Of a stretch of 64,000 bases of DNA, positions 14,282-52,838 are shown piece after piece. This DNA comes from an uncultured Gammaproteobacteria bacterium (GTDB lineage Bacteria; Patescibacteriota; Microgenomatia; UBA8517). A program made the translations under genes and the position numbers. Location of the stretch: contig CAZPLB010000002.1 of assembly GCA_964587425.1 (NCBI GenBank), forward strand, positions 31,285-95,284. Reading direction: 5' to 3'. The notes under the pieces were generated by a model, which searched no databases, was not told the DNA's origin, and saw only the letters and a program-made list of their open reading frames with translations. The first letter of the stretch is position 1. Every line of letters begins with the position of its first letter.

Positions 14282-14305
14282 CTAACTGCTTTTATTTAAG
14301 CAGAT

Positions 14306-15391: not shown

Positions 15392-15432
15392 ACCTATAGT
15401 TTACCAAGAACAGTCAAGTAGAATGAATTTAT

Positions 15433-16071: not shown

Positions 16072-16075
16072 AAAT

Positions 16076-16102
16076 GAAAAAAGGTTCCCCTTTAGAGGAA
16101 CC
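16076..16102 (-). terminator. Terminator-like 8-bp hairpin plus U6 located 7 nt upstream of the vanW-like start codon (possible attenuator)
   Basis: Minus-strand GGTTCCTC-TAAA-GGGGAACC followed by TTTTTT then CATTT-ATG. Confidence 0.4.
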
Positions 16103-16242
16103 GATTTGAGGCTATCTTAACACATTATAGGATGAAAAGTCAAGTTTGGAGACCTATTTAGACAAGGGTAAAAATGGGCTAACTATTGACATTCCAGGCT
16201 TCATGGTTTAAATTGCACATGACTTCTGCCTGAGGGCAAAAA

Positions 16243-30282: not shown

Positions 30283-30326
30283 AATGAGCTATATTAGGCT
30301 CAACTCAAGAAGAAATCAAATTTTGT

Positions 30327-30548
30327 TTAAGAATTACCATGCAAATGTCCTTTTATATATTGTGCAATAGATACTACAACTGGGTCGGTATTATCAACAA
30401 CCATCTCAGAAGAAGACTTTTGTGCAACATCAATAACTCCAGTTTCTTTAATAACCAACTCTTTACCAACATCCTTTAAATGATCCTTTATGTACTGCTC
30501 AATAGATGCTGCAATAATTGCATCATCTGGTCTATTTTCTATTTCCAT
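30327..30548 (-). CDS. Small acidic protein with an internal tandem repeat (73 aa), first gene of the aaRS-paralog/polyamine operon
   Basis: Two copies of I(E/A)QYIK(D/G)HL; preceded on the minus strand by TTGACA-16-TAAAAT only ~6 nt before the ATG (near-leaderless). Confidence 0.35.
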   Translation of the reverse strand: MEIENRPDDAIIAASIEQYIKDHLKDVGKELVIKETGVIDVAQKSSSEMVVDNTDPVVVSIAQYIKGHLHGNS

Positions 30549-30627
30549 AACACTATTTTACTACTTTGTTCTAGTTTGTCAAAAAAGTTATTACGCAACA
30601 CTAATCCCCTTTTACGGAATAAATCTA

Positions 30628-31761: not shown

Positions 31762-32501
31762 TGTTTACTTAAACTAAGATATGAATGAAAGCTCATAAAT
31801 GCTGCTTGAACAAAACCATGTGTACCATCTAAAAATCCAAGCCTCAAAATGTAGTTAACAAAAAATTTTCCCACTGGATGGAAAATGACAAATAAAAAAT
31901 TAAACCTCTTTTTTTCTTTTATATTTTCCTCTGCATGATGTGTTGAATAGTTATTTAAATCAGTTAAAAATTCTTTTATTGAGTTATGTGGATAATGTAA
32001 AATTGGATTATTTAATTCACCAATTTCCCCTTTTACCCGCCATTCCTCATGGACAGCTCTGTTCCATTTGCCGCTTCCTTTTCTAGCAAGTCTTAATAGT
32101 TTGGCATTTGCAGTTTCCCCATGCCTCAATTCCTTTCCCATCCAGTAATCTCTCCTTCTTATGCAGTACCCAGAAATATTTGTTGTTTGTAGTTTATTTA
32201 CAATTTCCTCTGCAAGTTCCTTTGGAACAACCTCATCTGCATCTAAAAATAATACCCATTCATTTTTTGCTTTTTTGAGACCAAAATTTCTTTGTTCTGC
32301 AAAGTTGTTGTCGAGCTTGTGTCTAAATACTTTTACTTTTTTTGATTTAAATAATTTTACAATACGAAGTGTGCCGTCAGTTGAATAATCATCAACAACA
32401 ATAATCTCACTGCACCACATGAGGCTTGCCATACACTTTTTTATATTCCTCTCTTCATTTTTTGTAAGTACGACAGCAGAAATTGAAGTTATATTATGCA
32501 T
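31749..32501 (-). CDS. Family 2 glycosyltransferase
   Basis: GT2 N-terminus VVLTKNEERNIKKCMASL..IIVVDDYSTDGT and DxD (LFLDADE). Confidence 0.75.
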   Translation of the reverse strand: MHNITSISAVVLTKNEERNIKKCMASLMWCSEIIVVDDYSTDGTLRIVKLFKSKKVKVFRHKLDNNFAEQRNFGLKKAKNEWVLFLDADEVVPKELAEEIVNKLQTTNISGYCIRRRDYWMGKELRHGETANAKLLRLARKGSGKWNRAVHEEWRVKGEIGELNNPILHYPHNSIKEFLTDLNNYSTHHAEENIKEKKRFNFLFVIFHPVGKFFVNYILRLGFLDGTHGFVQAAFMSFHSYLSLSKQWTH

Positions 32502-33717
32502 TTCTTAAAGTCTTTTGAAAAAGGTAGAAGGCAACAGGAAGTCCTACAATTGAACCAATCAAAGCCGAGAATGCAGCTCCAGTAATTCCAAACATATTAG
32601 TCAAAGGAAAAATAAATATAGCAAGCGTTAAAATACTAACCAAAGTTACAATTGAAACATAATTCTGTTTCTTGTATGCCAAAAAGACAGAATAAAAAAG
32701 ACTTGTAATTGATCTAATTACGCCAAAAAGAGAAAGAACACGAAGAACTGGTATGGCAAGTAGCCACTTCTCACCCAACACTAGTCTCACTGCAATATCA
32801 GACAAAAGAAAAAGAGCAATTCCAAATGGAGCCACTGTGACAAATGTATATCCTAAAGTTTTATAAAATGCTCTCTTAATTCTTTCCTTGTCTTCTGTAA
32901 ATTTGACGTAAATTGGGAAGGTAACTCTTCCAAGTTGTTTCGCTAAAACATTTAATGGAACTATTGAAAGAGCATATGCCTGCTGATAAATTCCAAGTGA
33001 GAATGCATTCAAAAGGCGCCCTATGGCAAGGTCATCCAAATGTTCAAAGAAATAATCAAAAAGATAAGCAGCTGTTACCCATTTACCGCGGTGAATAATC
33101 CTTAGTAATTGTTCTTTTTCAAACTTCAATTTTGGCCTCTCTTTCACAATGATAAATGTAATAATAATTTCAAGGATTGCAGAAACAATCATTCCTAAAA
33201 CAAAGCTGAAAACAGAATGTGTAGTTAATGCAAAAATGACAACTGAAATATCTCCAATCAAAGATATTGCAAATCTATAAATTGCATCCTCCTTGAACCT
33301 AAGACTTTTTTGCAGAGTTACAATGGCAGGATTAATAAAGCCGCGGATAAATGGCACCAGACTTACTGCAAGAATTACATTGTGCGCTTGAGGTGTTTTG
33401 AAAAATAAGGCAATTGGGTATGAGAAAATTGCTAAAACAAGAGAAATTAAAACTCCCCTTGCAATAGATACCACCCAAGCAGTATCTAAAAACTTTTTTA
33501 CTTCGTCTTTCTCTTGAACTAAAAAGACATTAATCCCTGTTTCAGTTAGAAGTTCCAAAAAACCAAGTATTAAAATTGCTATTCCAAAGACACCAAATTC
33601 AGTTGGAGAAAATATCCTGGAAAGAATTGCAATTTTAATAATGCTCGTTCCTTTCCCAGCCAAATCAAGGAAACTCCCCCAAGAAATCCCTTTTATAACA
33701 TCTCGAGAATACCCCAT
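32494..33717 (-). CDS. Polysaccharide flippase (Wzx/MOP superfamily)
   Basis: 12-TM-like hydrophobicity pattern, gene context between glycosyltransferases. Confidence 0.6.
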   Translation of the reverse strand: MGYSRDVIKGISWGSFLDLAGKGTSIIKIAILSRIFSPTEFGVFGIAILILGFLELLTETGINVFLVQEKDEVKKFLDTAWVVSIARGVLISLVLAIFSYPIALFFKTPQAHNVILAVSLVPFIRGFINPAIVTLQKSLRFKEDAIYRFAISLIGDISVVIFALTTHSVFSFVLGMIVSAILEIIITFIIVKERPKLKFEKEQLLRIIHRGKWVTAAYLFDYFFEHLDDLAIGRLLNAFSLGIYQQAYALSIVPLNVLAKQLGRVTFPIYVKFTEDKERIKRAFYKTLGYTFVTVAPFGIALFLLSDIAVRLVLGEKWLLAIPVLRVLSLFGVIRSITSLFYSVFLAYKKQNYVSIVTLVSILTLAIFIFPLTNMFGITGAAFSALIGSIVGLPVAFYLFQKTLRNA

Positions 33718-34640
33718 ATAAATCCAAGCATTATAGCTATATCGCTTGTTACCTGAAGTATAATTACAAATAGCCCGCTCCGCCAGTCGAGATGCTTATT
33801 TCTAAATTTAAAAATAGAAAAAGCAAAATAAATTAAAACACAAAAAAGTAAGTAAACAGAAGGTAACTCAAAAAACAAAACAAAGGAAAGAAGAGCTAGA
33901 CCAATCAAATACCTCAAAAAAATTGTAAGTGTGTGTATATTGTGCGACCAAAGACCTTTGCTTGGATGAACTATAACTTTTGTTAATACATCACCTTTTG
34001 AATATCCAAAAACTTTTTTACCAAATTCAAAAATATCTTTTGGCATCCCCCACTCTACAATTGCATTTTTCACGACAACAATTTTCACACCGTTTTTCAA
34101 AAGTTTTACGTTAAACAGTGTGTCCTCAGCTGCATCTCTCAGTTTTTCATCAAATCCATGAACCTTTTTCCAAACACTCTTTCTGAAGGCAATAGAGCGA
34201 GTAGAAGGTAAAAAATCATCACCAACTTCATCAGGCATTACCCCCAAATATGGAATCATTGCTCTTTGAAGATATGAGTCTCCAACCATCTTATAAAATC
34301 CAGCTACGACTTCATTTTTCCCACTAACAAATGGTTTCGTTAATTTTGAAAGCCAATCTCTCTGTGGAGTACACCCTGCATCAGTCATTGCAATAATTTC
34401 ATACTTAGAAAGCTTTACACCAAGGTTTCTTCCTTTTGATCTACTAGTTCCTTTTTTTACAATTAATTTTAAGTTTGAAGAAGATTTAAAACTATTAATT
34501 ATTGAAATTGTGTCATCAGTTGATCCAGCATCAACAATAATTATCTCGTCAGGCTTTTTACTTTGTTTTGAAAGTGAAACAAGAAGCTTTTGAATTGATC
34601 CCTCTTCATTTAAAATTGTTACTACTACTGAAACTTTCAC
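33693..34640 (-). CDS. Family 2 glycosyltransferase with C-terminal TM segments
   Basis: VSVVVTILNEEGSIQKLL..IIIVDAGSTDDT GT2 signature, DAG..D motifs, TM tail. Confidence 0.75.
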   Translation of the reverse strand: MKVSVVVTILNEEGSIQKLLVSLSKQSKKPDEIIIVDAGSTDDTISIINSFKSSSNLKLIVKKGTSRSKGRNLGVKLSKYEIIAMTDAGCTPQRDWLSKLTKPFVSGKNEVVAGFYKMVGDSYLQRAMIPYLGVMPDEVGDDFLPSTRSIAFRKSVWKKVHGFDEKLRDAAEDTLFNVKLLKNGVKIVVVKNAIVEWGMPKDIFEFGKKVFGYSKGDVLTKVIVHPSKGLWSHNIHTLTIFLRYLIGLALLSFVLFFELPSVYLLFCVLIYFAFSIFKFRNKHLDWRSGLFVIILQVTSDIAIMLGFIWGILEML

Positions 34641-34943
34641 TTACCCTCTATGTTCTTTTAATCTTAGTTTTACGGTCTTTCTATCCTCAGATTTTTCAGC
34701 CTCCAACTCCGCATCGTCAAAACCAACTTTCAAGAAATAAACAAAAGAATCAGCATCCTTCTTACGCCAATGCCCACTCAGTAATATATTATCTGGATGG
34801 CTATTTAAATTATCTGACTTACCATTAATTAATCTCTTTTTACTAGTACCAAACTCTCCTTTATCTTTCCCTTCCTTTCCCAACTGCACATTATGAACAG
34901 TGTGAACATAATCTGTAATTCTATTTCCTCTTTCTTCGCCCAT
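34641..34943 (-). CDS. Hypothetical basic protein (100 aa)
   Basis: ORF only, abuts the GT2 start; lies between the glycan genes and the RM gene. Confidence 0.3.
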   Translation of the reverse strand: MGEERGNRITDYVHTVHNVQLGKEGKDKGEFGTSKKRLINGKSDNLNSHPDNILLSGHWRKKDADSFVYFLKVGFDDAELEAEKSEDRKTVKLRLKEHRG

Positions 34944-35153
34944 CAGAGAGAGATTAATTCATCTATATATTTTTGCAAGAAGTCAAAGTGGTACATATCC
35001 CATCATTACACGTTAAAAATCTACTTTTTGTTCTTTTTAAGTATTTTTGGATTAATAGCTCGTTTAAGAAGTTCTTCGAAGGTTATCTTTTGTTTTTTCT
35101 TTTTCTTAATCACAAGTTCAATATAACACGAGAAAAACCATAGAAACTTACAC

Positions 35154-37484
35154 TTGTGTTTCTTTAGCAATATAGTTATTATTGTTTACATGAACAACCA
35201 AACGTATAATCTACCTTTGGAAAGAGATACAGAAACCCTCATTGATAGAACTCTTGAAAACCTTGGCTGGATTGATGACCCTAAAAGTAATGCTAGAAAT
35301 GTATACAAGCAACAACCCAAAACCAGCGATCAAAAACGAGCATTGAATGGTCTTTTCCCTGATTACGTACTATATAAAACTGGCTCAGATAAACCAATTA
35401 TTGTGATTGAAGCCAAAAAGCCAAGAAAAAATATTCACGAAGCACTAAAACAAGGATTAGATTACGCACAAAAGATTGGAGCTCCCATTGTTTTTGCCAC
35501 TGACGGAATTTTTACTAAAACACTGCATATTAAAACAAAGAAACCACTCACTCTTAACGGTGAAGAACTTGATGAACTTATTAGGGAGTATATCGCCTTA
35601 CAATATATAGATACTAGCGATTTAACCACTAAAGACAAAAAAGTAATCGAGTCTCGAAAAGAGCTAATCGGTATATTTGATCATGCCAATGACATATTGC
35701 GTGGTGAAGGACTCCATGCAGGAGTTGATAGATTTAGTGAATTTGCCAATATTCTTTTTTTGAAGATAATATCTGAGCGAGAGGATATTAACGAACAAAA
35801 TGGGGATGCTAACGTAATACCAAGAGAATACCGCTGGAACTTCTTTAAGAATAAGAGGGATAACGAGTTGAGACAATATATCAACTCGATTGTCCTTAGA
35901 TATTTCAGGGAAAGATATAACGATTCAAATATATTCACAGATCTTCGGATTAAAAACCCGAATCGATTAAAGAAAATAATAGAAATGCTCGATCCTCTTT
36001 ATCTGATAGATACTAAAGCAGATATAAAAGGTGATGCTTTTGAGTACTTCTTAAAGTCGTATAGCTCGGGAAATAGTAATGATCTTGGGCAATATTTCAC
36101 ACCTAGACACATCGCTAAAACTTTAGTTAAGCTACTGAACCCCCAACTTGGTGAAAAGATCTATGATCCCTTCTGTGGAACAGGTGGGATGTTGACAGAA
36201 TCTTTCAAATATATTTTCAATCGAATGCCACAGAATAGAAATTCTGAAGATATTTTGAAAACTAGTACAGTATACGGACGAGAGTTAACTAGCATCGCCA
36301 GAATCGCCAAAATGAATATGATATTGATAGGTGATGGCCATAGTAATATTGAGCAGACAGACAGTCTTGAGCACCCATTATCAAATGAATATGATGTGGT
36401 AATAACAAACATCCCATTTGCACAAGAAACTGAGTGGGGAAACCTTTATGACCTACCAAGCAGAAATGGTGACAGTATATGCCTACAGCACTGCCTTAAA
36501 TCTCTAAACTCTAATAATCCAAATAGTCGAGCTGGAATTATTGTACCAGAAGGTTTCTTGTTTGATTCAAGATTTGAGAAAGAAAGAGAGTGGTTAGTTG
36601 AAAAATTTGACTTACAAACTGTTATTTCTCTACCTTCTGGCGTTTTCCTACCATATACTCCACAAAAGGCTAGTATTTTGCATGTAAAACTAAGAGATAA
36701 AGCTAAGAAGAAGAAAAATGTTTGGTTTTTTGACGTAAAGTCAGATGGTTACACCTTAGATAATTACAGGAAACCAACTGATAAAAATGACTTAGACAAT
36801 CTACTGGACGGCATACATTTTGATTCACTGGAAATAAGCGAACTAAGAAAAAGAAAATATGAATTAGTTAGATCACTCTATATTAAAGGTGGAATAATTG
36901 GAGGGAAACATAAAACAGTAGATCTAAAGTCGATAGCAACCGTTGCGTTTGGTAATTCGGCACCACAAGACCTTGATAGTTTCATAGACGGAACCCACCC
37001 TTTCGTTAGAGTCTCCGATCTCGCAAAGAAACATATAGCATTTAATTTAACAGATACTAGAGATTTGCTTAACGACAAAGCAGTAAAAAATATGCGACTT
37101 TTTCCTAAGGGAACGATACTTTTTCCTAAAAGTGGTAAATCAGCTCTGAAAAACCATAGAGGTATATTAGGCCGTGACGCTTATCTGGTAAGTCACTTCG
37201 CTTGTATTATCCCTAATGTTGACATAGTTGATCCCTACTACCTGTTTAAATGTTTAATAAATATTAAAGCTCAGGACATCATAGTGAACGAAGGCTATCC
37301 TTCAATCAGGAAGGAGACGTTTGAAAATCTACAGATTCCACTACCACCAATAGAGAAACAAGAGGAATTAGTTAAAGAAATGAAAGAAATAGTAGATTTA
37401 GAGTATAGAGTTAACGAGCTTATGAGTAATATGGATATACGATTTGAATCTGAAAATGCTACTTTAGAGAACAATGACAAATAA
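35154..37484 (+). CDS. Single-polypeptide Type IIG-like restriction-modification enzyme (HSDR_N/Mrr-like PD-(D/E)xK nuclease domain + gamma-class N6-adenine MTase + one HsdS-like target recognition domain)
   Basis: N-terminus PDYVLYKTGSDKPIIVIEAKKP (HSDR_N motif); MTase motifs GQYFTPRHIAK (X), DPFCGTGGML (I), VVITNIPFAQ (IV, NPPF-type); C-terminal ~300 aa with HsdS-like TRD features (..KIGDLFE-like block, IPLPPIEKQEELV conserved HsdS repeat motif). Confidence 0.75.
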   Translation: MCFFSNIVIIVYMNNQTYNLPLERDTETLIDRTLENLGWIDDPKSNARNVYKQQPKTSDQKRALNGLFPDYVLYKTGSDKPIIVIEAKKPRKNIHEALKQGLDYAQKIGAPIVFATDGIFTKTLHIKTKKPLTLNGEELDELIREYIALQYIDTSDLTTKDKKVIESRKELIGIFDHANDILRGEGLHAGVDRFSEFANILFLKIISEREDINEQNGDANVIPREYRWNFFKNKRDNELRQYINSIVLRYFRERYNDSNIFTDLRIKNPNRLKKIIEMLDPLYLIDTKADIKGDAFEYFLKSYSSGNSNDLGQYFTPRHIAKTLVKLLNPQLGEKIYDPFCGTGGMLTESFKYIFNRMPQNRNSEDILKTSTVYGRELTSIARIAKMNMILIGDGHSNIEQTDSLEHPLSNEYDVVITNIPFAQETEWGNLYDLPSRNGDSICLQHCLKSLNSNNPNSRAGIIVPEGFLFDSRFEKEREWLVEKFDLQTVISLPSGVFLPYTPQKASILHVKLRDKAKKKKNVWFFDVKSDGYTLDNYRKPTDKNDLDNLLDGIHFDSLEISELRKRKYELVRSLYIKGGIIGGKHKTVDLKSIATVAFGNSAPQDLDSFIDGTHPFVRVSDLAKKHIAFNLTDTRDLLNDKAVKNMRLFPKGTILFPKSGKSALKNHRGILGRDAYLVSHFACIIPNVDIVDPYYLFKCLINIKAQDIIVNEGYPSIRKETFENLQIPLPPIEKQEELVKEMKEIVDLEYRVNELMSNMDIRFESENATLENNDK

Positions 37485-37507
37485 AAAAGATTTCGACAAA
37501 TTGCTTA

Positions 37508-37738
37508 AAAAGGTAAAATTATTATATGGAGCAACTCTAAAAAGAAGTTCTTTAAAAATCCCTTCTTTTCTGTAGTTATATCTGAAAGCATATTCATCGC
37601 ATAAGTTTGAAGATATTTGGGATCAACGTGCACATAAAACCCCGTTATTCCTCTTTTTACTTGTCCCCAAAACCCTTCAATTGTATTAGTGTGTATTTCA
37701 GGATTATCAACCTTCGATAACCTCTTATCTAGAAGTAT
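37508..37738 (-). pseudogene. IS1595-family (ISXO2-like) transposase, C-terminal remnant only (~77 codons)
   Basis: Minus-strand translation ..DNPEIHTNTIEGFWGQVKRGITGFYVHVDPKYLQTYAMNM.. matches the conserved IS1595 C-terminal block (HTNTIEGFWS.LKRGI.GVYHHVS.KHLQRY); no upstream DDE part remains, frame closed by a stop at 37739-37741. Confidence 0.6.
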
Positions 37739-38600
37739 TTACCTTCCAAAGTTTCAAATATAACTGGGCGACTTTGTCCCAAGTTTGTTGTCTTGCCCAA
37801 CTATTTGCATCCTCATCTAAAAATGGAGATAGCTTCCAATAATCTTTTTTCAAAGTATTATCCCAACCAACCATTAGCTTGCATCCACTACTCAAAGCTT
37901 CAAGAGCTACAAGGTATCCTCCTGCAAAACAAATTTGTGATTTCTTGTAATAAAGATGTGGGTCAGTAAATCCATGAACTGTTCCATATTTTTCACAAGT
38001 TTCACGCAACCGTCCATCACCACAAAATTCAACTGAGTAACTTTTGTGTGTATCTAAAAATTTGAACAGTTTTTTTATCCCAGTATCCCACTCTAATCTT
38101 CCAACATACAAAATACTATTTCTTTTTCTTTTACTATTTGTTCTTTTCATAGTTTCAATTCCGCCATACGTAATATAATCAGCTTTTACTCCATACCACT
38201 TCTCTATATATTCCCCAACTGCAATACTCCCCCAGGAAAGTTTGCATGCAAGTCTTTTCAAAAAAATATTTTTGAATGGAATTGGAAACTTTCCTTCCCA
38301 ACCATGAAATGTTGTGTAAACAGGTTTATGTAGAAAAAGAAATCGGAAAGGTAAGTACCAAACAAAAACATCATGACAGTGGACAATATCAACACCTAAA
38401 ATTAATTTTCTGTTTTTGAACAGCCAGAACCATATATAAATAAGTCCAAGAATTTTAATGTTGGGGTATTTAATATCTTCAGTAGAAATCGTCTTGACTT
38501 TATGACCTTTTAAATTTAACCTGCTACTTAAACTATATATGTGTCTTTCAACACCACCTCTGTGTGGCCAAGAATATCTAGCTAAAAAGAGTACTCTCAT
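37725..38600 (-). CDS. Glycosyltransferase (GT-B, group 1-like, short)
   Basis: N-terminus MRVLFLARYSWPHRGGVERHI typical of GT4-type N-domain; C-terminal FAGGYLVALEALSSGCKLM helix. Confidence 0.55.
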   Translation of the reverse strand: MRVLFLARYSWPHRGGVERHIYSLSSRLNLKGHKVKTISTEDIKYPNIKILGLIYIWFWLFKNRKLILGVDIVHCHDVFVWYLPFRFLFLHKPVYTTFHGWEGKFPIPFKNIFLKRLACKLSWGSIAVGEYIEKWYGVKADYITYGGIETMKRTNSKRKRNSILYVGRLEWDTGIKKLFKFLDTHKSYSVEFCGDGRLRETCEKYGTVHGFTDPHLYYKKSQICFAGGYLVALEALSSGCKLMVGWDNTLKKDYWKLSPFLDEDANSWARQQTWDKVAQLYLKLWKVNTSR

Positions 38601-39334
38601 TTTTTTGAAGAAAGGATGTAAATTTGAGATTCTCCAAATAGAGGTATCGTAAGCGTGTCAATAAATGCAAAAGTGTCAGAAAGAGATCCTTTGAGAAATC
38701 TAATAATATTTCCAGCAAAACGATTGGTAAATAAAAAATTCCTTAGAATACCTTCAGTTTTGTAAGTACGTAAAATATTCATCTTTCGATCCAGTAACAA
38801 TTCACTCAAGTCTCCCAAAGTATATCGTCTTAGATGTCCCACTCTTTCGTCAAAACCCTTAAGCATATTTAATCTATAAAGAGGGGCGTTTTTTGAAGGA
38901 ACAGATAATAATAGCAAACCATCATCTTTTAAATAATTCTTTACATAATTTAGAACCTTCCGATCGTCCTTTAGGTGTTCTAATACCTCTGTCATCAAAA
39001 TTAAATCGTATTTACCCTTAACCTTAATTGTTTGAAACTTACCAGAAACAAACCTAGCGTTATTGTTCAAAGACAAAAACTCTGCACTTGAAATTGCTGT
39101 ATCAATTGCTCGTTTGGAGATATCAACACCAAGGACTTTACTGCCTTTTGAAGCTAAATATAAACTTACTGTACCAACACCACATCCAATGTCCAAAACT
39201 TTCTTATCCCCGTTAAGAAGAGAATTTTCATTAAGTATCCAGAATAGATTCCTATAAGTAAAATTATTTTTAGCTATAATCTTTTTCTGAATTCTTGTGA
39301 CACTGTGGTATTTTTCGTATAACAAATTACTCAC
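38597..39334 (-). CDS. Class I SAM-dependent methyltransferase
   Basis: VLDIGCGVGTVSLYLASKGSKVLGVDISKRAI motif I and post-I. Confidence 0.7.
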   Translation of the reverse strand: MSNLLYEKYHSVTRIQKKIIAKNNFTYRNLFWILNENSLLNGDKKVLDIGCGVGTVSLYLASKGSKVLGVDISKRAIDTAISSAEFLSLNNNARFVSGKFQTIKVKGKYDLILMTEVLEHLKDDRKVLNYVKNYLKDDGLLLLSVPSKNAPLYRLNMLKGFDERVGHLRRYTLGDLSELLLDRKMNILRTYKTEGILRNFLFTNRFAGNIIRFLKGSLSDTFAFIDTLTIPLFGESQIYILSSKK

Positions 39335-39521
39335 AATGGAAGTCTAACAATAAAGTTTCCACTTGACAAATATTGCGATTTCATACTTTACTGAAACAGG
39401 TGAACAAATTGAAATCCAAGATAGGATTAACTTTAACCCTTGCAATAACACTGTTGTCTGTCTCTCTCAAAAATAAAGGAGGTTGTGGAATCAACTCCCC
39501 ATATCTCTGGAGATTTGCTAT

Positions 39522-40100
39522 ATGAGAGAGGATCCACCTCTCGTAGACCTCAAAGTCACAAATCCTATTACTTACATCAAAAAATGGTGGGGTAAAATAA
39601 TTGGAAATGAAGGTATAGACTTCAGGTTTCGTGTTCACCCCTTAACTGCCCTTGCAATCGCAATAGTTATAGCCAGTATTGGTTTTGGAGTAGGAAGATT
39701 CATCTTACCTTTCCCAATCCCCTTCTTTCAGTACAATAATGAAACTGGACAAGTAGATAAAGTATCTCCAACCGCAAACCCGTGGAGGGAAACTGCATAT
39801 ACTGGAACTCTTCAATTTTCAAAAGCAACAAGCCTCTACTATCTTCAAGTTACATCATCCTCTGAAGCAATAACCCTTCAAACTCCATCAAATATTGATT
39901 TCGAACCCCTGATTGGGAAAAGAATACTTGCTATAGGAAGTTACAACAAGGGAACCAGAACCCTAGTTGTAGCCGATGCCAAAGACCTAGAAATCCTTCC
40001 AAAATCACCTATTCCAATACCAACAATCGAGCCAACAAACACCACAGCACCAACTGCAACACAAACTCCATTATCTGAGCCTACGAACCAGCCATATTAG
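39522..40100 (+). CDS. Membrane-anchored extracytoplasmic protein with Pro/Thr-rich C-terminus, unknown function
   Basis: One TM helix (LTALAIAIVIASIGFGVG) then a beta-rich region and a PT-rich tail; start taken at the internal ATG (MREDPP..); the overlapping minus-strand 85-aa ORF was rejected. Confidence 0.4.
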   Translation: MREDPPLVDLKVTNPITYIKKWWGKIIGNEGIDFRFRVHPLTALAIAIVIASIGFGVGRFILPFPIPFFQYNNETGQVDKVSPTANPWRETAYTGTLQFSKATSLYYLQVTSSSEAITLQTPSNIDFEPLIGKRILAIGSYNKGTRTLVVADAKDLEILPKSPIPIPTIEPTNTTAPTATQTPLSEPTNQPY

Positions 40101-40135
40101 CCAAAATTGCACCAATTTAACCCACTTTGAACATC

Positions 40136-40164
40136 TTGACAAAGACCAAATATACTATTAATAT
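40136..40164 (+). promoter_or_regulatory. Sigma70-like promoter TTGACA-N17-TAATAT
   Basis: Read directly: cTTGACAaagaccaaatatactatTAATAT. Confidence 0.4.
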
Positions 40165-40235
40165 GTAAAAAGTTAAATGTACGGGACCAAAAACAGATTG
40201 ATGTTTTTGTTGCCCCTTGCAAAAAGGGTATATGA

Positions 40236-40262
40236 CCTCGACCAAAAGTCGGGGCTTTTTAT
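40236..40262 (+). terminator. Intrinsic terminator-like hairpin (CCUCGAC-CAAAA-GUCGGGG) followed by CUUUUUAUU
   Basis: 7-bp stem with one G-U pair and a U-tract, ~70 nt downstream of the promoter above and ~55 nt upstream of the secreted-protein operon. Confidence 0.4.
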
Positions 40263-40318
40263 TGTCCAAAACTTGACTTTTAGTATTATAGGATTATAAT
40301 ACGGACGATTAGATAAAT

Positions 40319-42310
40319 ATGGCAAACAGAGAAGCATTGTTAGTCGCCACAGTTTTAACAGCAGCTGTCACCACAGGCAGTATTGCATCAGCCTCCCAAA
40401 ATAACACCGATCTCGAAGGAAAAGATAAAGACAAAACCTTTTGTTCACCCGATAGTCTAAACATTCTAACAAAACAAGCAGATCAAAAATGTGCACAATG
40501 GTCACTTTCCACTGCCGCTCCTTTGGTTAACACTGTCCCAAGTACTTTTAATGATTTAGAAGCTCAGGCTGAACATATGCGTAGAATTGAGGTATCAGGT
40601 GAAGCAAATACACAAGCTGAAGATACGAGATTTTCACGAGTCGAGAGACAAAATGTCATTGGAAACCCTAATATTGCAGCCATAGCACTAGATTCCTTTC
40701 CACTTGGAGACTTAACTTCACCTGACAATGCCCAGAATATTTCTACTGCTACAAATCCCGGGATTATTCCAATGGATACTTTCTATAGTGCCCTAGAAGC
40801 AGACTTGAATGCACATTTTCAAGGAGATGAACTGCAAAATGAACTAAGTAAGTTTCAAGAAGTAAAAGTTAAATATGACAGCGAAAGAGCTTTTGTGGCT
40901 CAATGGTTGGGAACAGATGTGGAAAATATAGATGCAGAATTAGTGATTCTATCTAGCACATATCAAGGGGTAGCTGATACAGGAATACTTCTTCATCCTA
41001 CAATAGGCCAAGGAGTACTTGACACAGGAGTACCTGCTTACTTTTTAGATGCAGATGGAATTGTTGGTCCAGATGGACAAGAGATTCCAAGAGGATCATT
41101 CTTAACTACTTTTAACAATCATGGAATTGCAGATGTTGCTGTAATGAGATATGACACAAGTGGAAGCAGTTCACTTAATTTAATCACGCTTGAAGAACCA
41201 GGAGGCACTACAGTTATACCAGCCAGATACAATACTGATGGGCAGCTTGTTTCTATCTTAATGAAAGGCCAAGAACAATATGATTATGCCCAAGAAATGG
41301 CAGTCCATTTTGGCAAAATAAATACCACAGCGTCTTATGTAAATGTACGAGATGATGTGACAGGTCAACCACTAAAAACACCAAACGGTGCGCCTTTTGT
41401 GTTCAACGATGGGTTTGACGTAATAGTTTTTGATAATAGTAAAGGAATGATACCTAACACAAATATAGAAGGTGAGCGTGTTCTTCTTCCAGCAGGTACT
41501 ACGGCTCTTGTTGCATCAAGTTTAATTGAGGATTCTCAAAACATACCATTACTAGGAGCGGGTATACCTCTTACCCCCGTTTCACCCACAATTGTAGATA
41601 ATCAGAATCAAACTCAAAACCAAGAAAACGCAGGTGTAGAAGTTGTTGTGGTACCGGCATTTGATCCAGAAAATTCAATTTTCGAAAATGCCAGTTTTTC
41701 ACCACAGGCAGAATTAAGTTCAACAACAGGAAATTACACTGTTGCATACAGTAATGGAGTTATGGAACTCGCTGGAAAATCGTCTATTTCTTCGCCTGCA
41801 AATGTCATGGATCAGGCATACCAAACCATACTTAATTTAGCTCTAAATCTTTCAGGAACTCCCACCCCCGAAGATGTTGAAATGCGAGGGGTAACTAATG
41901 GTGCACACGACGCAAACCCAGGTCACATTAGCGGTTCATTGAGTGGAATAGAACAATACATTGTAACTACACAAGAATTTATAAGTATCAAGGCAAATTT
42001 TGAGTCTCAAACAGAAATTGAATATGTCGAAATAGTTCCACCTCAACAATATTTGGTAGGAGCCATCATCTATCGAGACGCAGCAGGAAAATATATCCTT
42101 ATTAACTCTGAAACATTTTCAGGACTAAGACGTCGTTTTAACGCCCAGGAGGCAATCAAAAACGGACCAGCTCTTGCTGAATTTTATTTTATTGATGGAA
42201 TGGCCGCAGGGAAAGGAACCTCTCCTGCAATCAATGTAACAAATATGTACGAAATATTTGGTTGGACAGAGGCTTTGGGATGTCAAAACTGTTCACTTGT
42301 ACTCCAATAG
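40319..42310 (+). CDS. Large secreted protein (663 aa), unknown function
   Basis: Signal peptide MANREALLVATVLTAAVTTGSIASA; no recognisable catalytic motifs. Confidence 0.55.
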   Translation: MANREALLVATVLTAAVTTGSIASASQNNTDLEGKDKDKTFCSPDSLNILTKQADQKCAQWSLSTAAPLVNTVPSTFNDLEAQAEHMRRIEVSGEANTQAEDTRFSRVERQNVIGNPNIAAIALDSFPLGDLTSPDNAQNISTATNPGIIPMDTFYSALEADLNAHFQGDELQNELSKFQEVKVKYDSERAFVAQWLGTDVENIDAELVILSSTYQGVADTGILLHPTIGQGVLDTGVPAYFLDADGIVGPDGQEIPRGSFLTTFNNHGIADVAVMRYDTSGSSSLNLITLEEPGGTTVIPARYNTDGQLVSILMKGQEQYDYAQEMAVHFGKINTTASYVNVRDDVTGQPLKTPNGAPFVFNDGFDVIVFDNSKGMIPNTNIEGERVLLPAGTTALVASSLIEDSQNIPLLGAGIPLTPVSPTIVDNQNQTQNQENAGVEVVVVPAFDPENSIFENASFSPQAELSSTTGNYTVAYSNGVMELAGKSSISSPANVMDQAYQTILNLALNLSGTPTPEDVEMRGVTNGAHDANPGHISGSLSGIEQYIVTTQEFISIKANFESQTEIEYVEIVPPQQYLVGAIIYRDAAGKYILINSETFSGLRRRFNAQEAIKNGPALAEFYFIDGMAAGKGTSPAINVTNMYEIFGWTEALGCQNCSLVLQ

Positions 42311-42332
42311 GATTTAATTGTATTATTGATTA

Positions 42333-42896
42333 GTGTCTAATAAGAAAATAATCGCCCTAATTTTTGTTTTTTGTGTAATTCTTCTTTTTGTTGCGCTTAA
42401 ATTAATAACAGCCAATCAATTCAAGTCCACACTATCCTCTCAACAAATTTATTTTGAATCCAACATACCCGATTTCAAGGTATCTCTAAAAAACGAGATA
42501 GATCTTAAAAATGCTCTGGAAAATTCAGGTCTTTGGGAGAAAGATAGAGTGAACAATTCCATTAATCCCGGTACTAAAATTACAGCGAATAATTTATTTA
42601 TTAATGTGTCATTAAAGACAGTCCACCCTTTTTATATACAAAATGATAAAGATGGTCACATGATAATCGAAGTAGAGTCTTTCACTGACACATCCAATAA
42701 CTTACATATAAACATAGGTATCGGCAATTACCTATTAAATAACCCCAAAAATGATACAGCAACATGGATTGATGCAGCTTTCTGGTCCGCAGTGAGATTT
42801 TCCATCAAAGATCCGACTATCATAGAAGAAGTGGCTTATGGAAGTACAAAAGGTATAAAATTATCTACATTCAAAATAACACCAATAAATAAATGA
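42333..42896 (+). CDS. N-terminally anchored extracytoplasmic protein (187 aa)
   Basis: TM helix IIALIFVFCVILLFVALKLI; overlaps the next gene by 4 nt (operonic). Confidence 0.5.
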   Translation: MSNKKIIALIFVFCVILLFVALKLITANQFKSTLSSQQIYFESNIPDFKVSLKNEIDLKNALENSGLWEKDRVNNSINPGTKITANNLFINVSLKTVHPFYIQNDKDGHMIIEVESFTDTSNNLHINIGIGNYLLNNPKNDTATWIDAAFWSAVRFSIKDPTIIEEVAYGSTKGIKLSTFKITPINK

Positions 42897-44599
42897 AAAT
42901 AAAATTATCCATAATATTATTTTTTGTTGGTTTTATGTTCTTTAACCCCAGTTCAGTAAATGCTCAACTTTCATGTCAAGGAAATACACCAAAAGCTGGT
43001 ACCCAAGAAAGACAAGTCTGTACAGATTCAGGCGGTAATCCATGTAGTTTTGGTGACCCCGGCTGTACCTGTTCAACAGTATGTGATGGCACAATATGGA
43101 CTTGTAACAGTTGCAGTAGCGGTCCAGGAGCAGGCGGATGCGGTGACGACTACTCATGCATCGGAATTACTAACTGGGTATGCGTTGTTCCTGGTACAGG
43201 GGGTTGTCATTGGGTAAACACGAGTACCCCAGCCCCAACAACTGGACCAACTGCATCTCCAGCCCCAGGTTCTTGTACCTCAGGTGATCCTTTCTATGGA
43301 CTCAGTAACTGTGGAGAAGTAGGAAGAGTAAATGGCTCAGGTAACTGTGGCGCTGGTTGTCTTTGCTGTGCAACTACTGGATCATTTAGTCCTCCTACCT
43401 GCAGTTTAGGTGTCCATAGTGGCTCTCTTGCAACAGGTCCCCTTTTAAGTAATGGGCAAAATTATAATATCCCCCTTAACGTCAATAAATTAACAGAATC
43501 TCGTACAAGCACAAACGGATGGGTACGAACCATATCCTATTTTGTTTCAGATACCTCAAAAGCATTCTTAAGTCCAGGTGGTCCCCAAAGAATAGTTCGT
43601 TTCTGTGATTGTAATACATTACCATGCACTAATTCATACACAGGTGGTACATGTGGTAGTACAAACCCCCAATCTGTCACAAATCAGTTTGTCCACGGCC
43701 TTTCAACTCTTACACCCTACTCTACTCTAACTGTTGCAACAACATGCCAGGGTCCTGGGGGAAGCGTTCAGAGAAGCCAAACCTTCCATTTGGTCGTAGT
43801 TGATACCCCTGCTTGGTGGCAGACAAAAGGTGGAGATGTAATGTCTGGTGACAATCTAGTATCAAAAATTCCTGCAACATGTACAGGGGCTTGTATCCCC
43901 GATCTCATTCTTGATGCTCCATCCCCACAAGGAAGCGGTTACCCCGGAGTGGCAGTGTATGGCACCGGCTACGATTTTTCAGACGGCAGTGGAGTTGGCA
44001 TTACCTCAACCAAAAATTGGTTAGCTCAATCAACGTATACAGGTAAAACATATAATTACAATTATTTTGATACTCTTGTACCAAGCGACGTCACTTTTGT
44101 AAATGTATCAGGGTCAGTAGGTGGTGGAACCTTTGTCTCACAGGGAACTCCAAACAAAGGATATGTATGGTTCAAATCTACTGGTGATTTAACAATCAAC
44201 AGTAATATTAACTTGAGTGCAAGAAAAGTAATTCTTCTGGTTAATGGAAACTTAACCATTCAGGGGCCAATTAATGTAACTGATGGTCAGGGCTTTTTCT
44301 TAACTGTTGTTTCTGGAACAACATCATTTGACCCAAGCTTAGGAGGATCAAGCGGAAGTCCATCTATTGAAGGTATGTTCCTCTCAGATGGAGGAATTTC
44401 AACGGGTGGTGGAAATGTTGCCTTTTACGAACGTGGCTCGATAGTTGCAAACGGAGGGTTAAATCTGCAAAGGAATCTGGGAACAACCAATAACAAAACC
44501 AATCCAGCAGAAGTTTTTGAATACGCCCCAGATATGATACTTAACTTTCCAAGATCTCTTGCAAGATCCAAAATAATCTGGCAGGAAGTAGCGCCGTAA
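42893..44599 (+). CDS. Secreted Cys-rich protein with a C-terminal beta-helix-like repeat region
   Basis: Signal peptide, then ~150 aa with >25 Cys (CQGNTPKAG..CTDSGGNPCSFGDPGCTCSTVCDG..), then Gly/Asn/Thr-rich repeats (..NINLSARKVILLVNGNLTIQGPINVTDG..) reminiscent of right-handed beta-helix adhesins. Confidence 0.5.
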   Translation: MKIKLSIILFFVGFMFFNPSSVNAQLSCQGNTPKAGTQERQVCTDSGGNPCSFGDPGCTCSTVCDGTIWTCNSCSSGPGAGGCGDDYSCIGITNWVCVVPGTGGCHWVNTSTPAPTTGPTASPAPGSCTSGDPFYGLSNCGEVGRVNGSGNCGAGCLCCATTGSFSPPTCSLGVHSGSLATGPLLSNGQNYNIPLNVNKLTESRTSTNGWVRTISYFVSDTSKAFLSPGGPQRIVRFCDCNTLPCTNSYTGGTCGSTNPQSVTNQFVHGLSTLTPYSTLTVATTCQGPGGSVQRSQTFHLVVVDTPAWWQTKGGDVMSGDNLVSKIPATCTGACIPDLILDAPSPQGSGYPGVAVYGTGYDFSDGSGVGITSTKNWLAQSTYTGKTYNYNYFDTLVPSDVTFVNVSGSVGGGTFVSQGTPNKGYVWFKSTGDLTINSNINLSARKVILLVNGNLTIQGPINVTDGQGFFLTVVSGTTSFDPSLGGSSGSPSIEGMFLSDGGISTGGGNVAFYERGSIVANGGLNLQRNLGTTNNKTNPAEVFEYAPDMILNFPRSLARSKIIWQEVAP

Positions 44600-44618
44600 G
44601 TCTTTGGGTTAACAATCT

Positions 44619-45011
44619 ATGATTCAAAAATCAAATGATGAGTGGAAAAAGAAACTAACTCCAGAAAGCTATAAAGTTACTTGTGAAGGCTCAACAGAAG
44701 CTCCATTCACAGGTAAATACTTACACAACAAGGATACTGGGATGTACAACTGTATCCGCTGTGGAGCTACGCTATTCTCATCAGATACAAAATTCGATAG
44801 TGGAACAGGCTGGCCGAGCTTCTATGATGTAGCCAAAACAGGAACAGTAAAAATCAAAAAAGATTTAAGTTTGGGAATGGTAAGGGATGAAGCAGTCTGC
44901 AGCAATTGCGGAGCCCATCTTGGTCACCTTTTTGATGATGGTCCAAAAGAAAAAACAGGTTTAAGATATTGCATCAATTCAGCTGCACTTGACTTCAAAA
45001 AAGAAAAGTAA
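44619..45011 (+). CDS. msrB: Peptide-methionine (R)-S-oxide reductase
   Basis: Two CxxC zinc knuckles (CIRCGA.., CSNCGAHLGHLF) and GTGWPSF catalytic region typical of MsrB/SelR. Confidence 0.85.
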   Translation: MIQKSNDEWKKKLTPESYKVTCEGSTEAPFTGKYLHNKDTGMYNCIRCGATLFSSDTKFDSGTGWPSFYDVAKTGTVKIKKDLSLGMVRDEAVCSNCGAHLGHLFDDGPKEKTGLRYCINSAALDFKKEK

Positions 45012-45025
45012 GAAAATAAATCTCC

Positions 45026-45241
45026 ATGCCGGAGTTCGAAAGTATACATTTACAAGAGATATTTGATACTGCTAAAAGTATCACCCAAAACAATGGTAAA
45101 GTTAGACAGTTTGACAGGACAGGCGCACTCAAGACAATAGCAATGCACCAAAAGATGGCACTAGAGTCAAACATAAACCCCTTTGAAGTAAGCACGGCAA
45201 TATCTAGAGGATTTAGAGCCGGTACTGAAAAAATAAATTAG
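45026..45241 (+). CDS. Small hypothetical protein (71 aa)
   Basis: ORF only; ends 1 nt before the tRNA-Val 3' end on the opposite strand. Confidence 0.3.
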   Translation: MPEFESIHLQEIFDTAKSITQNNGKVRQFDRTGALKTIAMHQKMALESNINPFEVSTAISRGFRAGTEKIN

Positions 45242-45313
45242 TGGATCCGGATGGGATCGAACCATCGACCTTACCGATGTGAACGGTACGCTCTACCACT
45301 GAGCCACGGATCC
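45242..45313 (-). tRNA. tRNA-Val (anticodon CAC)
   Basis: Acceptor GGATCCG/CGGATCC perfect, D-arm GCTC-AGTGGTA-GAGC, anticodon stem TACCG/CGGTA with loop TTCACAT, T-arm GATGG-TTCGATC-CCATC, discriminator A. Confidence 0.8.
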
Positions 45314-45397
45314 GAGACATCATATTTTAACACGAAGTTATAAATTTCATCACACTCCACTTGCCTTTCACCAACCAAAACTACATAATTAAAAGGT

Positions 45398-45952
45398 ATG
45401 ATGCAGCGAATCGGAAGCTTCCTCCTAGATACAATTCAAGTAGTTGTATTTGCAGTCTCAATTTTTCTCTTTCTCTACCTAATTGTTGCCCAACCCCATA
45501 AGATCAAAGGTCACTCTATGGAATCAAACTTCCATGATGGACAATATATACTAACTGACAAACTCTCATATCGCTTTGGGAACCCCAAGAGAGGCGATGT
45601 AATAGTTTTCAAAGCCCCTCCAGATGGCCATGATGAATTCATCAAGAGAATAATTGGAATAGCTGGAGATACTGTCATGGTACAAAATGGAAAGGTTTTC
45701 TTGAATGGAAAGCAGTTAAATGAAACATATCTGCCGTCAGACCTATACACCAGTCCAGGGTCATTTCTAACAGAGGGAAACACTATTACTGTCGCCAACA
45801 ATTCATATCTTGTTATGGGAGATAATAGACCAAATTCATTCGATGGAAGAAACTTTGGACTAATTACAAGGGATAAGATAACTGGACGTGGTTGGCTTGT
45901 TTACTGGCCGCCACAGGATGCAAAAATAGTTAAAAATCCATTCGGAAATTAA
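45398..45952 (+). CDS. lepB: Signal peptidase I (S26 family)
   Basis: Catalytic Ser region KGHSMESNF, GDVIVFK, Lys box FIKRIIGIAGD, C-terminal GDNRPNSFDGR. Confidence 0.8.
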   Translation: MMQRIGSFLLDTIQVVVFAVSIFLFLYLIVAQPHKIKGHSMESNFHDGQYILTDKLSYRFGNPKRGDVIVFKAPPDGHDEFIKRIIGIAGDTVMVQNGKVFLNGKQLNETYLPSDLYTSPGSFLTEGNTITVANNSYLVMGDNRPNSFDGRNFGLITRDKITGRGWLVYWPPQDAKIVKNPFGN

Positions 45953-45968
45953 ACAAGAGAAGAATATA

Positions 45969-46805
45969 TTAGGAAGCCAAAGCCTTGTGAATTTTCTCCA
46001 ACCTTCCTTGAGTTTCCTCCAAGGTTCCGCGAAGTACAAAAGTAAGTCTCGTCTGGCTTCTTGACCTAACCAACTTTACTGCAGTTGATTTATCATCATT
46101 TGATAATGCAAGTCCTCTCTGCATATCCCCCTGCAGTTTATCAATCTCTTCAGAAATTATTCTCATGTCAGAAATTCTGGCTTTTGGCTTTGGAGCTTGA
46201 TTATTATCAGCCTTCATACGTCGGGCCAACTCTTCTGCTCGCCTTACTGATCCACTCTCACGAAGAATTATCTTGTAGGCATCAATGACTAAGCTCTGGT
46301 CATCAATAGACGAAAGCGCTCTAGCATGTCCCTCAGAAATAAGTCCTGAAAGTAGTCCATCTTTAAGGGCATCAGGAAGAGTAAGGAGTCTCATTGAGTT
46401 AGATACATAGGCTACACTTTTTCCAATTTTTACTGCCACTTCACTTGTAGTTAATCCAAACTCATTCATTAATCTTTCAAAACCTTTTGCACGATCAAGT
46501 GGATTAAGATCAACTCTTTGCACATTTTCAACCAAGGCCATTTCAAGCATTCCTTTGGGAGAAGTTTCACGAACTACAGCTGGAACATGAGTAAGCCCTG
46601 CAAGTCTCGAAGCTCTCCATCGCCTTTCTCCTGCAATAATTTGATACCCAGCCGGAGTCTTGGCAATAACCAAAGGTTCAAGTACTCCATGTTCTTTAAT
46701 GGAATCAACTAAATCGACTAAACTTTCTGGGGTGATAACGCCGCGAGGCTGCAAAGGATTACTTTGAAGTTCATCTACTGCAATCTGGATTATTGAGTCT
46801 GCCAT
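45969..46805 (-). CDS. parB: ParB/Spo0J-family chromosome partitioning protein
   Basis: ParB box GERRWRAS..(CTPase motif), HTH region, N-terminal ..[10 protein letters not shown].. Confidence 0.8.
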
Positions 46806-52256: not shown

Positions 52257-52838
52257 ATGTATTTGCACAACAAAAATTTGTGTGCTACATTTGGCAGCAT
52301 GGGAATATCAAAAGAAATTGAAAACGAACGTTTACAATTTGGAACAAGACCAAAAACTTTCACACAAGCATTGGTTCGTTTGCCTGACCATGGAGTATTT
52401 GTGAGAGGTGACACGGAACTTGAATCGCTCATGTCTCTCCGGTTTCAATTAACCTACGCTTTAAAAATGGGTTGCTCGGCAGACTCTCTAACCGAAAGAA
52501 TGTACCCACTAGAACCAAAAGAAATGGCTCTTCTCGAAAAGTTTTCTTTCAAAAGAAATGAAGTAATCGCAACTGGTAAATGGATCGCCCTAGGGAGAAA
52601 TAAAGTATGGAATACAATGTTTGGATCCGAAGATGACGATTACAGACACTACAATGTAACATCGATTACTCCAACCCTCGACAGGAAACGACCACAGATG
52701 ATTTGCATACAAGAACACGATGATTATTCCAAAACAAGCTGGGATTGGGAAACAGACGCTATTTCAACATTCTATATTGGGATTATCACAAGCAAAGAGC
52801 TTAGTGAACTTAAGAAAGCACTCCAGGAAGAAATTTAA
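52257..52838 (+). CDS. Hypothetical protein (193 aa)
   Basis: ORF only; 4-nt tail-to-tail overlap with the ftsZ stop region. Confidence 0.35.
   Translation: MYLHNKNLCATFGSMGISKEIENERLQFGTRPKTFTQALVRLPDHGVFVRGDTELESLMSLRFQLTYALKMGCSADSLTERMYPLEPKEMALLEKFSFKRNEVIATGKWIALGRNKVWNTMFGSEDDDYRHYNVTSITPTLDRKRPQMICIQEHDDYSKTSWDWETDAISTFYIGIITSKELSELKKALQEEI

Follow-up and report, generated by a model that had tools for sequence, protein, structure and literature searches.

ComZ, a competence-associated type IV pilin of Thermus thermophilus (PDB 6qvi), carries a solenoid that is closest to an ice-binding protein, and has been argued to stand at the pilus tip and to bind DNA (PMC6561018). Canonical ice-binding proteins of the DUF3494 family have a long alpha-helix beside the solenoid that directs a reverse stack (PMC11645318). 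In Saccharibacteria TM7x, PilX1 and PilX2 are putative tip pilins of large size that carry accessory domains at the C-terminus and lack a PilD signal, and PilX2 is needed for efficient host binding (PMC11623550). How ultra-small Patescibacteria recognize and hold their hosts is largely unknown outside a few cultivated Saccharibacteria. Here we analyse three adjacent genes, referred to as A, B and C, from a 64,000-nt stretch of contig CAZPLB010000002.1 (positions 31,285 to 95,284; hereafter the window), which belongs to an uncultured bacterium of the Microgenomatia.

We favour the view that A-B-C is a three-gene cell-surface cassette of Microgenomates-type Patescibacteria and that its product is an attachment device, and hold this to be nearly an even call. 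Thousands of relatives have the same cassette, in some cases within a cluster of type IV pilus genes, which makes it a good candidate for the cell-attachment machinery of these Patescibacteria. Both the C-terminal domain family of C and the A-B-C cassette are absent from the protein-family databases and the literature searched; the domain is a new family that could be added to such databases.

A first reading of this DNA from its letters (the sequence-only reading) had described a secreted or surface operon of three abutting or overlapping genes, which encode two secreted proteins and, between them, a membrane-anchored one. Three same-strand open reading frames (ORFs) are present at 40319-44599 in the ORF listing, and an independent gene caller run on a second assembly of this DNA gave the same three genes; their coordinates, lengths and spacing all hold (Table 1). 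As C has homologues and the A/B/C layout recurs in relatives, they are genuine genes and not chance ORFs. The N-termini also agree with what had been proposed: A and C are predicted to be secreted, from ASA/S and VNA/Q sites respectively (the slash marks the predicted cut), and B to be membrane-anchored, from a hydrophobic anchor.

Table 1. Features of the A-B-C locus and other features of the window (positions in the window; aa, amino acids; pLDDT, predicted local distance difference test score of the AlphaFold2 model)
Feature	Positions	Strand	Basis or remarks
Gene A	40319-42310	+	663 aa, predicted exported protein
Gene B	42333-42896	+	187 aa, GTG start, predicted bitopic membrane protein
Gene C	42893-44599	+	568 aa, ORF listing
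C, predicted signal peptide, aa 1-24, MKIKLSIILFFVGFMFFNPSSVNA/QLSC	42893-42964	+	hydrophobic N-terminus and VNA/Q site; cleavage inferred
C, cysteine-rich head, aa 25-164	42965-43384	+	Cys positions, regional composition
C, predicted Ig-like beta-sandwich stalk, aa ~165-303, 6 Cys	43385-43801	+	all-beta model, pLDDT ~55-88
C, predicted conserved beta-solenoid domain, aa 304-568 and stop	43802-44599	+	pLDDT 85-98, invariant residues
Promoter-like site TTGACT-16 nt-TATAAT	40273-40300	+	11/12 consensus positions, top site in 39300-45500; consensus match only
Terminator-like hairpin	40236-40254
Second promoter-like site TTGACA-17-TAATAT	40136-40164	+
205-aa ORF	39483-40100
msrB	44619-45011
Cluster of exported envelope proteins	13163-16800
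Fused restriction-modification type polypeptide	35154-37484	+	776 aa
FtsZ gene split by an intein	52835-55117	-	759 aa

The predicted solenoid of C and its family

Word-indexed searches with C returned 17 homologues and then 24 matches. Alignment of the homologues sets a variable N-terminal part against a conserved C-terminal domain of ~265 aa, which runs from PWWQVKDGDV to an invariant W-x-E-V-A-P. In the window protein this domain starts at PAWWQTKGGDV and W-x-E-V-A-P forms the very C-terminus; the invariant residues are present, and the protein scores 347.5 bits against the hidden Markov model (HMM) of the domain over aa 304-568. We scored the domain profile against 1.84 billion cluster representatives (50%-identity clusters) and found 5,915 members at E ≤ 1e-3, 3,818 at 1e-10 and 1,552 at 1e-30. 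The domain is found at the extreme C-terminus in all 150 best matches, in proteins of 250-1,350 aa.

The AlphaFold2 (AF2) model of C, built from a 38-sequence alignment, is all-beta with short helices over residues ~304-560. The predicted domain is a right-handed triangular beta-solenoid that can be superposed on solved ice-binding proteins; it is, as a high-confidence prediction, a large beta-solenoid of the ice-binding-protein type, as in ComZ. The look of a parallel beta-helix that had been noted in the letters is thus matched by the predicted fold at aa 304-568. The Gly/Asn/Thr-rich repeats described along with it fared less well, as the region is indeed rich in G, S, T and N (42%) but self-BLASTP detects no internal repeats in C, and no tandem DNA repeats are found in the operon.

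Between the solenoid and the cysteine-rich part of C sits the predicted stalk, for which the best Foldseek matches are tandem immunoglobulin-like (Ig-like) domains. The profile of the family matches the Ig-like domains of BglH and SbsC in PDB, and relatives have Big_2 or fn3 at the stalk position. Among 68 relatives of C, adhesin-type modules ahead of the solenoid comprise Big_2 (16 members), fn3 (7), SdrD_B (3) and CarboxypepD_reg (3), with PA14, Laminin_G_3, GLEYA and TSP1 in one member each. A Hint, pretoxin-HINT or intein-like module precedes the solenoid in three of the 68 proteins, which suggests self-processing variants.

The head of C consists of one module with 12 Cys (aa 25-108), a Pro/Thr linker (aa 109-127) and a second module with 6 Cys (aa 128-164), the motif of which is CTSGDPFYG..NCGEVGRVNGSG.CGAGCLCC. 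The sequence-only reading had counted over 25 Cys in the N-terminal 150 aa; 14 are found there, 19 in residues 1-180 and 26 in the whole protein. The CxxC and C-x-C arrays it described do exist as motifs, but amount to two CxxC and three CxC only. It had also taken a disulfide-rich head to be unusual for a bacterium, whereas in this family such a head is the norm: most full-length members have a Sec-type signal peptide, a Cys within 1-5 residues and then a Cys-rich region, and both Cys modules of C are kept in P0002, P0003, P0010, P0017 and the protein of locus L010, so that the head is best regarded as a family trait. Most full-length members also share a cleavage-type motif, Ax(A)/Q-x-C or A/C, at the same place.

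Several relatives give weak matches to DUF7305 (PF23981), to which the window protein has no match at E ≤ 1. Four of the 68 relatives match it at E ≤ 0.01, and P0039 alone reaches 27.5 bits, against a gathering score of 27 bits, with the others at 12-21 bits; on profile scores, this suggests remote kinship of the family and not membership of the window protein. In the literature, nothing was found on DUF7305, and nothing relevant on cysteine-rich surface proteins or adhesins in Patescibacteria. Most of 55 loci carry the lineage label Woesebacteria, Microgenomates, Blackburnbacteria, Gottesmanbacteria or 'Patescibacteria group', and the family appears to be largely restricted to the Microgenomates-type lineages sampled, save for three loci (L042, L048 and L063) from metagenome-assembled genomes labelled Chloroflexi (one Pelolinea). 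The latter could reflect binning error or lateral transfer outside Patescibacteria.

Variable partners, fusions and pilus genes in related loci

None of A, B and C has a Pfam, NCBIfam, PHROG or PDB sequence match, and the database record of the contig leaves all three proteins without a name. The short hydrophobic N-terminus of A is followed by ASA/S, a typical signal peptidase I site (predicted signal peptide MANREALLVATVLTAAVTTGSIASA/SQ); the protein has four Cys, is divided in two by a Pro/Thr/Gln-rich linker at ~aa 415-445, and shows no internal repeats by self-BLASTP. Among 5.8 billion proteins searched A matched only itself. It is weakly similar to the same-position gene of locus L006 (E 2e-5 to 1e-3), with no other match, and lies outside the sole recognisable A-position subfamily (11 members). 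B opens with a short basic segment (MSNKK) that leads into a single hydrophobic helix (about residues 5-27; the hydrophobic run, longer than 19 residues and of signal-anchor type, falls within residues 1-30), and has a predicted external domain of ~155 aa. Its single-sequence AF2 model has a pLDDT of 44 and is confident for helix 3-31 only. B is clearly homologous to the B-position protein of L010 only (BLASTP E 2e-11), and an iterated HMM search from B yielded nothing beyond the window and L010.

ORF calling in 65 loci, combined with the domain HMM, yielded 68 C-family genes. We scored the upstream pattern of the 48 among them that have at least 2.8 kb of upstream sequence, taking as A-position a same-strand gene of at least 330 aa and as B-position one of 120-290 aa with an N-terminal transmembrane helix. 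Both positions are occupied in 26 cases, B alone in 7, A alone in 10 and neither in 5. In 33 of 48 loci, therefore, the gene immediately ahead of the C-family gene is of B type, and a large A-position gene is present in 36 of 48. The B-type gene adjoins or overlaps the C-family gene, frequently by 4 nt. The window matches this A-B-C pattern, with a large first gene and then a short one that has an N-terminal transmembrane helix; A and B are spaced by 22 nt, and the stop of B and the start of C share ATGA, a 4-nt overlap.

The order of the genes is better preserved than their sequences. All-against-all comparison of 33 B-position ectodomains gave only five similar pairs; these proteins have a common architecture (basic N-terminus, one helix, ectodomain of ~150 aa) without detectable sequence likeness. 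The tether of A-position proteins varies between a transmembrane helix, a lipobox-like motif and a signal peptide; these proteins have Pro/Thr linkers, and a Pfam search of ten of them found no domain. Between the window and locus L002, C is 53% identical, B is barely alignable (E 0.002) and A is not alignable. Thus A and B diverge beyond recognition while the A/B/C order stays. A diversity-generating retroelement was considered as the source of this hypervariability and rejected, as the window contains no template/variable repeat pair; direct repeats of at least 40 nt are absent from all 64 kb.

In three loci, L006 (P0003), L026 and L031, all of them among those with only a large gene upstream, B and C are fused. 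The fused proteins begin with a transmembrane helix, continue with ~200 aa that contain no Cys and only then reach the Cys-rich head, so that the head of C is the membrane-proximal end in all three. As a separate observation, four loci (L010, positions 1-812, L053, L057 and L061) have two C-family genes within a few kb, and in L011 and L013 the cassette is preceded by another pair of A/B-like genes, which points to local cassette duplication.

A scan for pilin motifs revealed clusters of 2-7 pilin genes near a C-family gene in 11 of 65 loci. Among the 48 loci with at least 5 kb of downstream sequence, eight carry at least two pilin genes in the 7 kb that follow (binomial P = 5e-6 to 2e-3 for a null of 2-5%, with relatedness ignored). 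In L020, L028 and L030, Pfam matches identify pilO, a pilN-like gene, PilM and a PilX-like gene of ~300 aa on one side of the cassette, and on the other 5-7 pilins followed by prepilin peptidase (PilD) and PilC. The PilX-like gene is found in 11 of 65 loci and is a direct neighbour of the cassette in eight, in three arrangements: divergent upstream (L020, L028, L030, L033 and L046), on the same strand downstream (L056) and convergent downstream (L051 and L003). Its product is well conserved between loci (E 1e-56 to 1e-114) and gives consistent sub-threshold matches to PilX_N. We also count the weak DUF7305 matches of several C-family members toward a link with pili.

Proposed attachment role and rival explanations

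If A-B-C is an attachment device, C would be exported by Sec and cut after VNA24, and its 26 Cys would form disulfides outside the cell. B, with its N-terminus inside, its C-terminus outside and one helix, would receive the head of C at the membrane and tether or present C, since the B-C fusions are built that way; with the N-terminal head anchored by B, the Ig-like stalk and the solenoid would therefore project outward. A would be a co-exported, fast-diversifying partner of the exposed complex. The invariant polar residues of the solenoid (WWQ..D.D, R527, E540, E543 and W563-x-E-V-A-P) would touch something conserved, either a ligand on the partner cell or surface or, where pilus genes adjoin, a PilX-like tip, and the hypervariable A, B and head of C would be surfaces under diversifying pressure. 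In the family at large the cassette would work with a type IV pilus, and this copy might do so too. A solenoid conserved as a docking or effector part, adhesin modules that are shuffled and partners that are hypervariable are hallmarks of an exposed, fast-evolving attachment system, and the recurrent adjacency to a PilX-like gene makes C a concrete, testable candidate for the adhesin shown by the type IV pili of these organisms.

Several observations weigh against this reading and call for caution. The function is read from fold, architecture and neighbourhood, and the whole case for contact between B and C consists of translational coupling and the three fusions, one of them known from a single short assembly. 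The likeness to ice-binding proteins and ComZ is one of predicted fold only: profiles of the family match neither among PDB sequences, and Foldseek (PDB and viral libraries) gave no match at E ≤ 1e-3. AF2 pLDDT is below 50 for B and for the head of C (residues 1-164), and the latter is uninterpretable. As proteins at the A- and B-positions are mostly not demonstrably homologous, the same position may hide different proteins. The loci adjacent to pilus genes are phylogenetically related, which inflates the enrichment statistics; in 54 of 65 related loci no pilus gene is found near the cassette within the sequence available, and the 64-kb window has no pilin-motif ORF, PilX-like gene or pilus machinery gene. 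The pilin partner suggested as a check on the sequence-only reading is therefore missing from the window. The adhesin or pilus-tip likeness that the reading proposed is upheld by the adhesin modules of the family and the pilus neighbourhood in a subset of relatives, but not by any pilus gene beside this copy. As for its proposal that the head mediates attachment to host cells or surfaces, nothing favours the head over the conserved solenoid as the binding part, and attachment itself is what we infer.

The pilus genes of relatives also allow a stricter reading, in which C is a pilus-tip adhesin analogous to PilY1 or ComZ. C would leave B and ride at the tip of a type IV pilus, its solenoid and WxEVAP tail docked on a complex of PilX-like minor pilins and its variable Cys-rich head turned outward as the binding end, while B, with its bitopic, pilin-like topology, and A would serve as loading or adaptor factors and the dispersed cassettes would be interchangeable tip adhesins. 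A conserved C-terminus combined with a variable N-terminus is the logic of PilY1, and the C family has the same; the solenoid and the PilX-like neighbour are both well conserved, the two are directly adjacent in the eight loci listed above, with pilus genes on both sides of the cassette in L020, L028 and L030, several C-family genes may occur per locus (L010, L053, L057 and L061), and PilX1 and PilX2 of TM7x offer a precedent. We nevertheless consider this unlikely, as the signal peptide of C is of the ordinary cleavable type, C is without a pilin-like helix, the Gly(-1)/Glu(+5) prepilin motif borne by the true pilins of the same genomes (GFTLIE) is missing from B, the window is without pilus genes, and the solenoid has no sequence similarity to the PilX-like protein. 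The fusions, moreover, are anchored in the membrane by their N-termini, and a tip position would fit them only if the helix of B were extractable like that of a pilin. Extended to the whole family, the proposal would make C the unrecognised PilY1/ComZ equivalent of Microgenomates type IV pili, a Sec-exported tip adhesin with its solenoid and WxEVAP end seated in a PilX-like pilin, which we likewise regard as rather doubtful. Were it true, the hypervariable Cys-rich head together with A would determine which host cell is grabbed, B would be a non-canonical pilin-like adaptor, mostly split from C and sometimes fused to it, and the dispersed A-B-C cassettes would form an exchangeable repertoire of host-specificity modules.

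Other functions for the exported protein find less room. In many surface proteins a conserved terminal domain is the anchor, and the solenoid of C could accordingly anchor C in the wall or S-layer of its own cell, or be an enzyme resembling polysaccharide lyases or hydrolases that acts on the partner's or its own envelope, with the N-terminal modules doing the binding. Its invariant polar residues cluster in WWQ.KD.D, LQRDL and PAE.FEYAPD, and beta-solenoids are commonly glycan-active enzymes (PMC6561018); yet no Pfam or NCBIfam enzyme or wall-binding family is found in the window protein or its 68 relatives, and the fusions have their anchor at the opposite end, which makes this improbable. 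The pairing of a secreted Cys-rich protein with a small, translationally coupled membrane protein, and the Hint or pretoxin-HINT modules in three of 68 members, would also suit a toxin or bacteriocin (C) with its immunity protein (B). However, immunity proteins co-vary with the toxin domain, whereas here the C-terminal domain is conserved and B hypervariable; B-C fusions would self-intoxicate, the fold matches are binding proteins, and nothing hints at a toxin family or a system of the PADLOC type, although PADLOC itself was not run. We give this reading very little credence, and less still to the idea that C is a divergent DUF3494 protein that adsorbs to ice. PF11999 has no match in C at E ≤ 1 and none among the 68 relatives at E ≤ 0.01, no sequence-profile link to PDB ice-binding proteins exists, the long helix beside the DUF3494 solenoid appears to be represented in the model by two short ones only, the operon has membrane partners and relatives have pilus clusters, and ComZ shows that the fold can serve other functions. 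The attachment device thus remains the reading that we favour.

Setting in the window and likeness to described systems

The claim that the three genes lie behind their own promoter is supported by a promoter-like site (Table 1), which ends 18 nt before the ATG of A and implies a 5' leader of ~10 nt. From this match and the ORF spacing, A, B and C form one tight, putative transcription unit. The terminator-like hairpin precedes the promoter-like site of A; as both stand between A and the 205-aa ORF, the latter was dropped as a member of the operon. A second promoter-like site lies ~70 nt ahead of the hairpin and its U-run, within a region (40136-40262) between that ORF and A that has an RNA fold z-score of -2.0 and no Rfam match, and which may be a small transcript or merely the terminator of the upstream gene. 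Downstream, msrB starts 19 nt 3' of C with no terminator-like site between, and may be co-transcribed with the cassette; it was dropped as a cassette member, as it is absent beside the cassette in the other loci with Pfam-labelled gene tables.

The neighbours in the window are ordinary chromosomal genes, including those for MsrB, signal peptidase I, ParB, the ribosomal proteins L27 and L21, FtsW/RodA and glycosyltransferases. G+C content is 0.39-0.40 at 40001-46000 and 0.32-0.35 at 30001-40000, within a range of 0.30-0.41 for the whole window; the raised value of the operon region may reflect Gly/Ala/Thr-rich protein composition or a separate origin. Elsewhere in the window, the FtsZ ORF combines the start of the tubulin/FtsZ GTPase domain (aa 12-108), an intein-splicing domain that includes a LAGLIDADG endonuclease (aa ~131-482) and FtsZ_C (aa 596-690). 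A cluster of exported envelope proteins comprises two adjacent proteins with C39-like peptidase domains, of which one also has Big_5 and the other TPR, together with a VanW-like protein and a protein with two LysM domains, and a single polypeptide joins HsdR N-terminal, N6_Mtase and Methylase_S (specificity) domains.

In ComZ the solenoid interrupts a pseudopilin-like domain whose N-terminus is a pilin helix. What C has instead is a cleavable-type Sec signal peptide, then a head rich in Cys and a predicted stalk of the Ig-like type; it has no N_methyl or pilin match and no detectable sequence similarity to ComZ, and the pilin-gene neighbourhood is absent in the window and seen in 8-11 of 65 related loci. 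The DUF3494 (PF11999) comparators, the Colwellia ice-binding protein 3wp9 and IBP_1 of Shewanella frigidimarina (6bg8), find no Pfam or profile counterpart in C. Where canonical members have a long helix, the model of C appears to have only two short ones (389-395 and 412-416), which precede the regular coils. The domain of the C family, moreover, invariably forms the C-terminus and closes with WxEVAP, in an operon with a partner and with a pilus context.

Like PilY1 of the type IVa pili of Pseudomonas and Myxococcus, C is a non-pilin with a Sec-type signal, a conserved C-terminal domain and a variable, adhesin-like N-terminal part; several paralogues are possible, and in a subset of relatives C is encoded beside minor pilins that include a PilX-like one. 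However, the C-terminal domain of PilY1 is a beta-propeller (Neisseria_PilC family) whereas that of C is a predicted beta-solenoid with no Pfam match, most cassettes, the window's included, lie outside a pilin operon, and PilY1 is without A- or B-type partners. PilX1 and PilX2 of TM7x likewise come from Patescibacteria, and the B-C fusions are comparable to them in having an N-terminal helix, a small domain and large modules. Their accessory domains have other folds, a jelly-roll lectin-like one and a 7-bladed propeller, and in the cassette the membrane-helix part (B) is usually a separate gene; the likeness seen is one of layout.

The fibrillar adhesins of monoderms are similar in being secreted and in having Big_2, fn3 or SdrD_B stalks and, in some members of the C family, the lectin-type modules PA14, GLEYA and Laminin_G. 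They differ in their anchoring: A-B-C has no LPxTG, sortase, S-layer-homology or LysM anchor, the tether, if any, is a separate or fused N-terminal membrane protein, and the conserved element is the C-terminal solenoid. The sortase/LPxTG partner that had been suggested for checking is missing, as A, B and C have no LPx[TSA]G, C ends in ...IIWQEVAP without a hydrophobic tail and no ORF of the window has a TLxTC motif; with neither an LPxTG signal nor a sortase-like ORF, the cassette is not a Gram-positive sortase pilus. C would work like modular adhesins, ComZ and PilY1-type proteins, yet belongs to none of the established classes, as it has no Pfam match to DUF3494, no pilin domain as in ComZ, no propeller as in PilY1 and no LPxTG as in sortase substrates.

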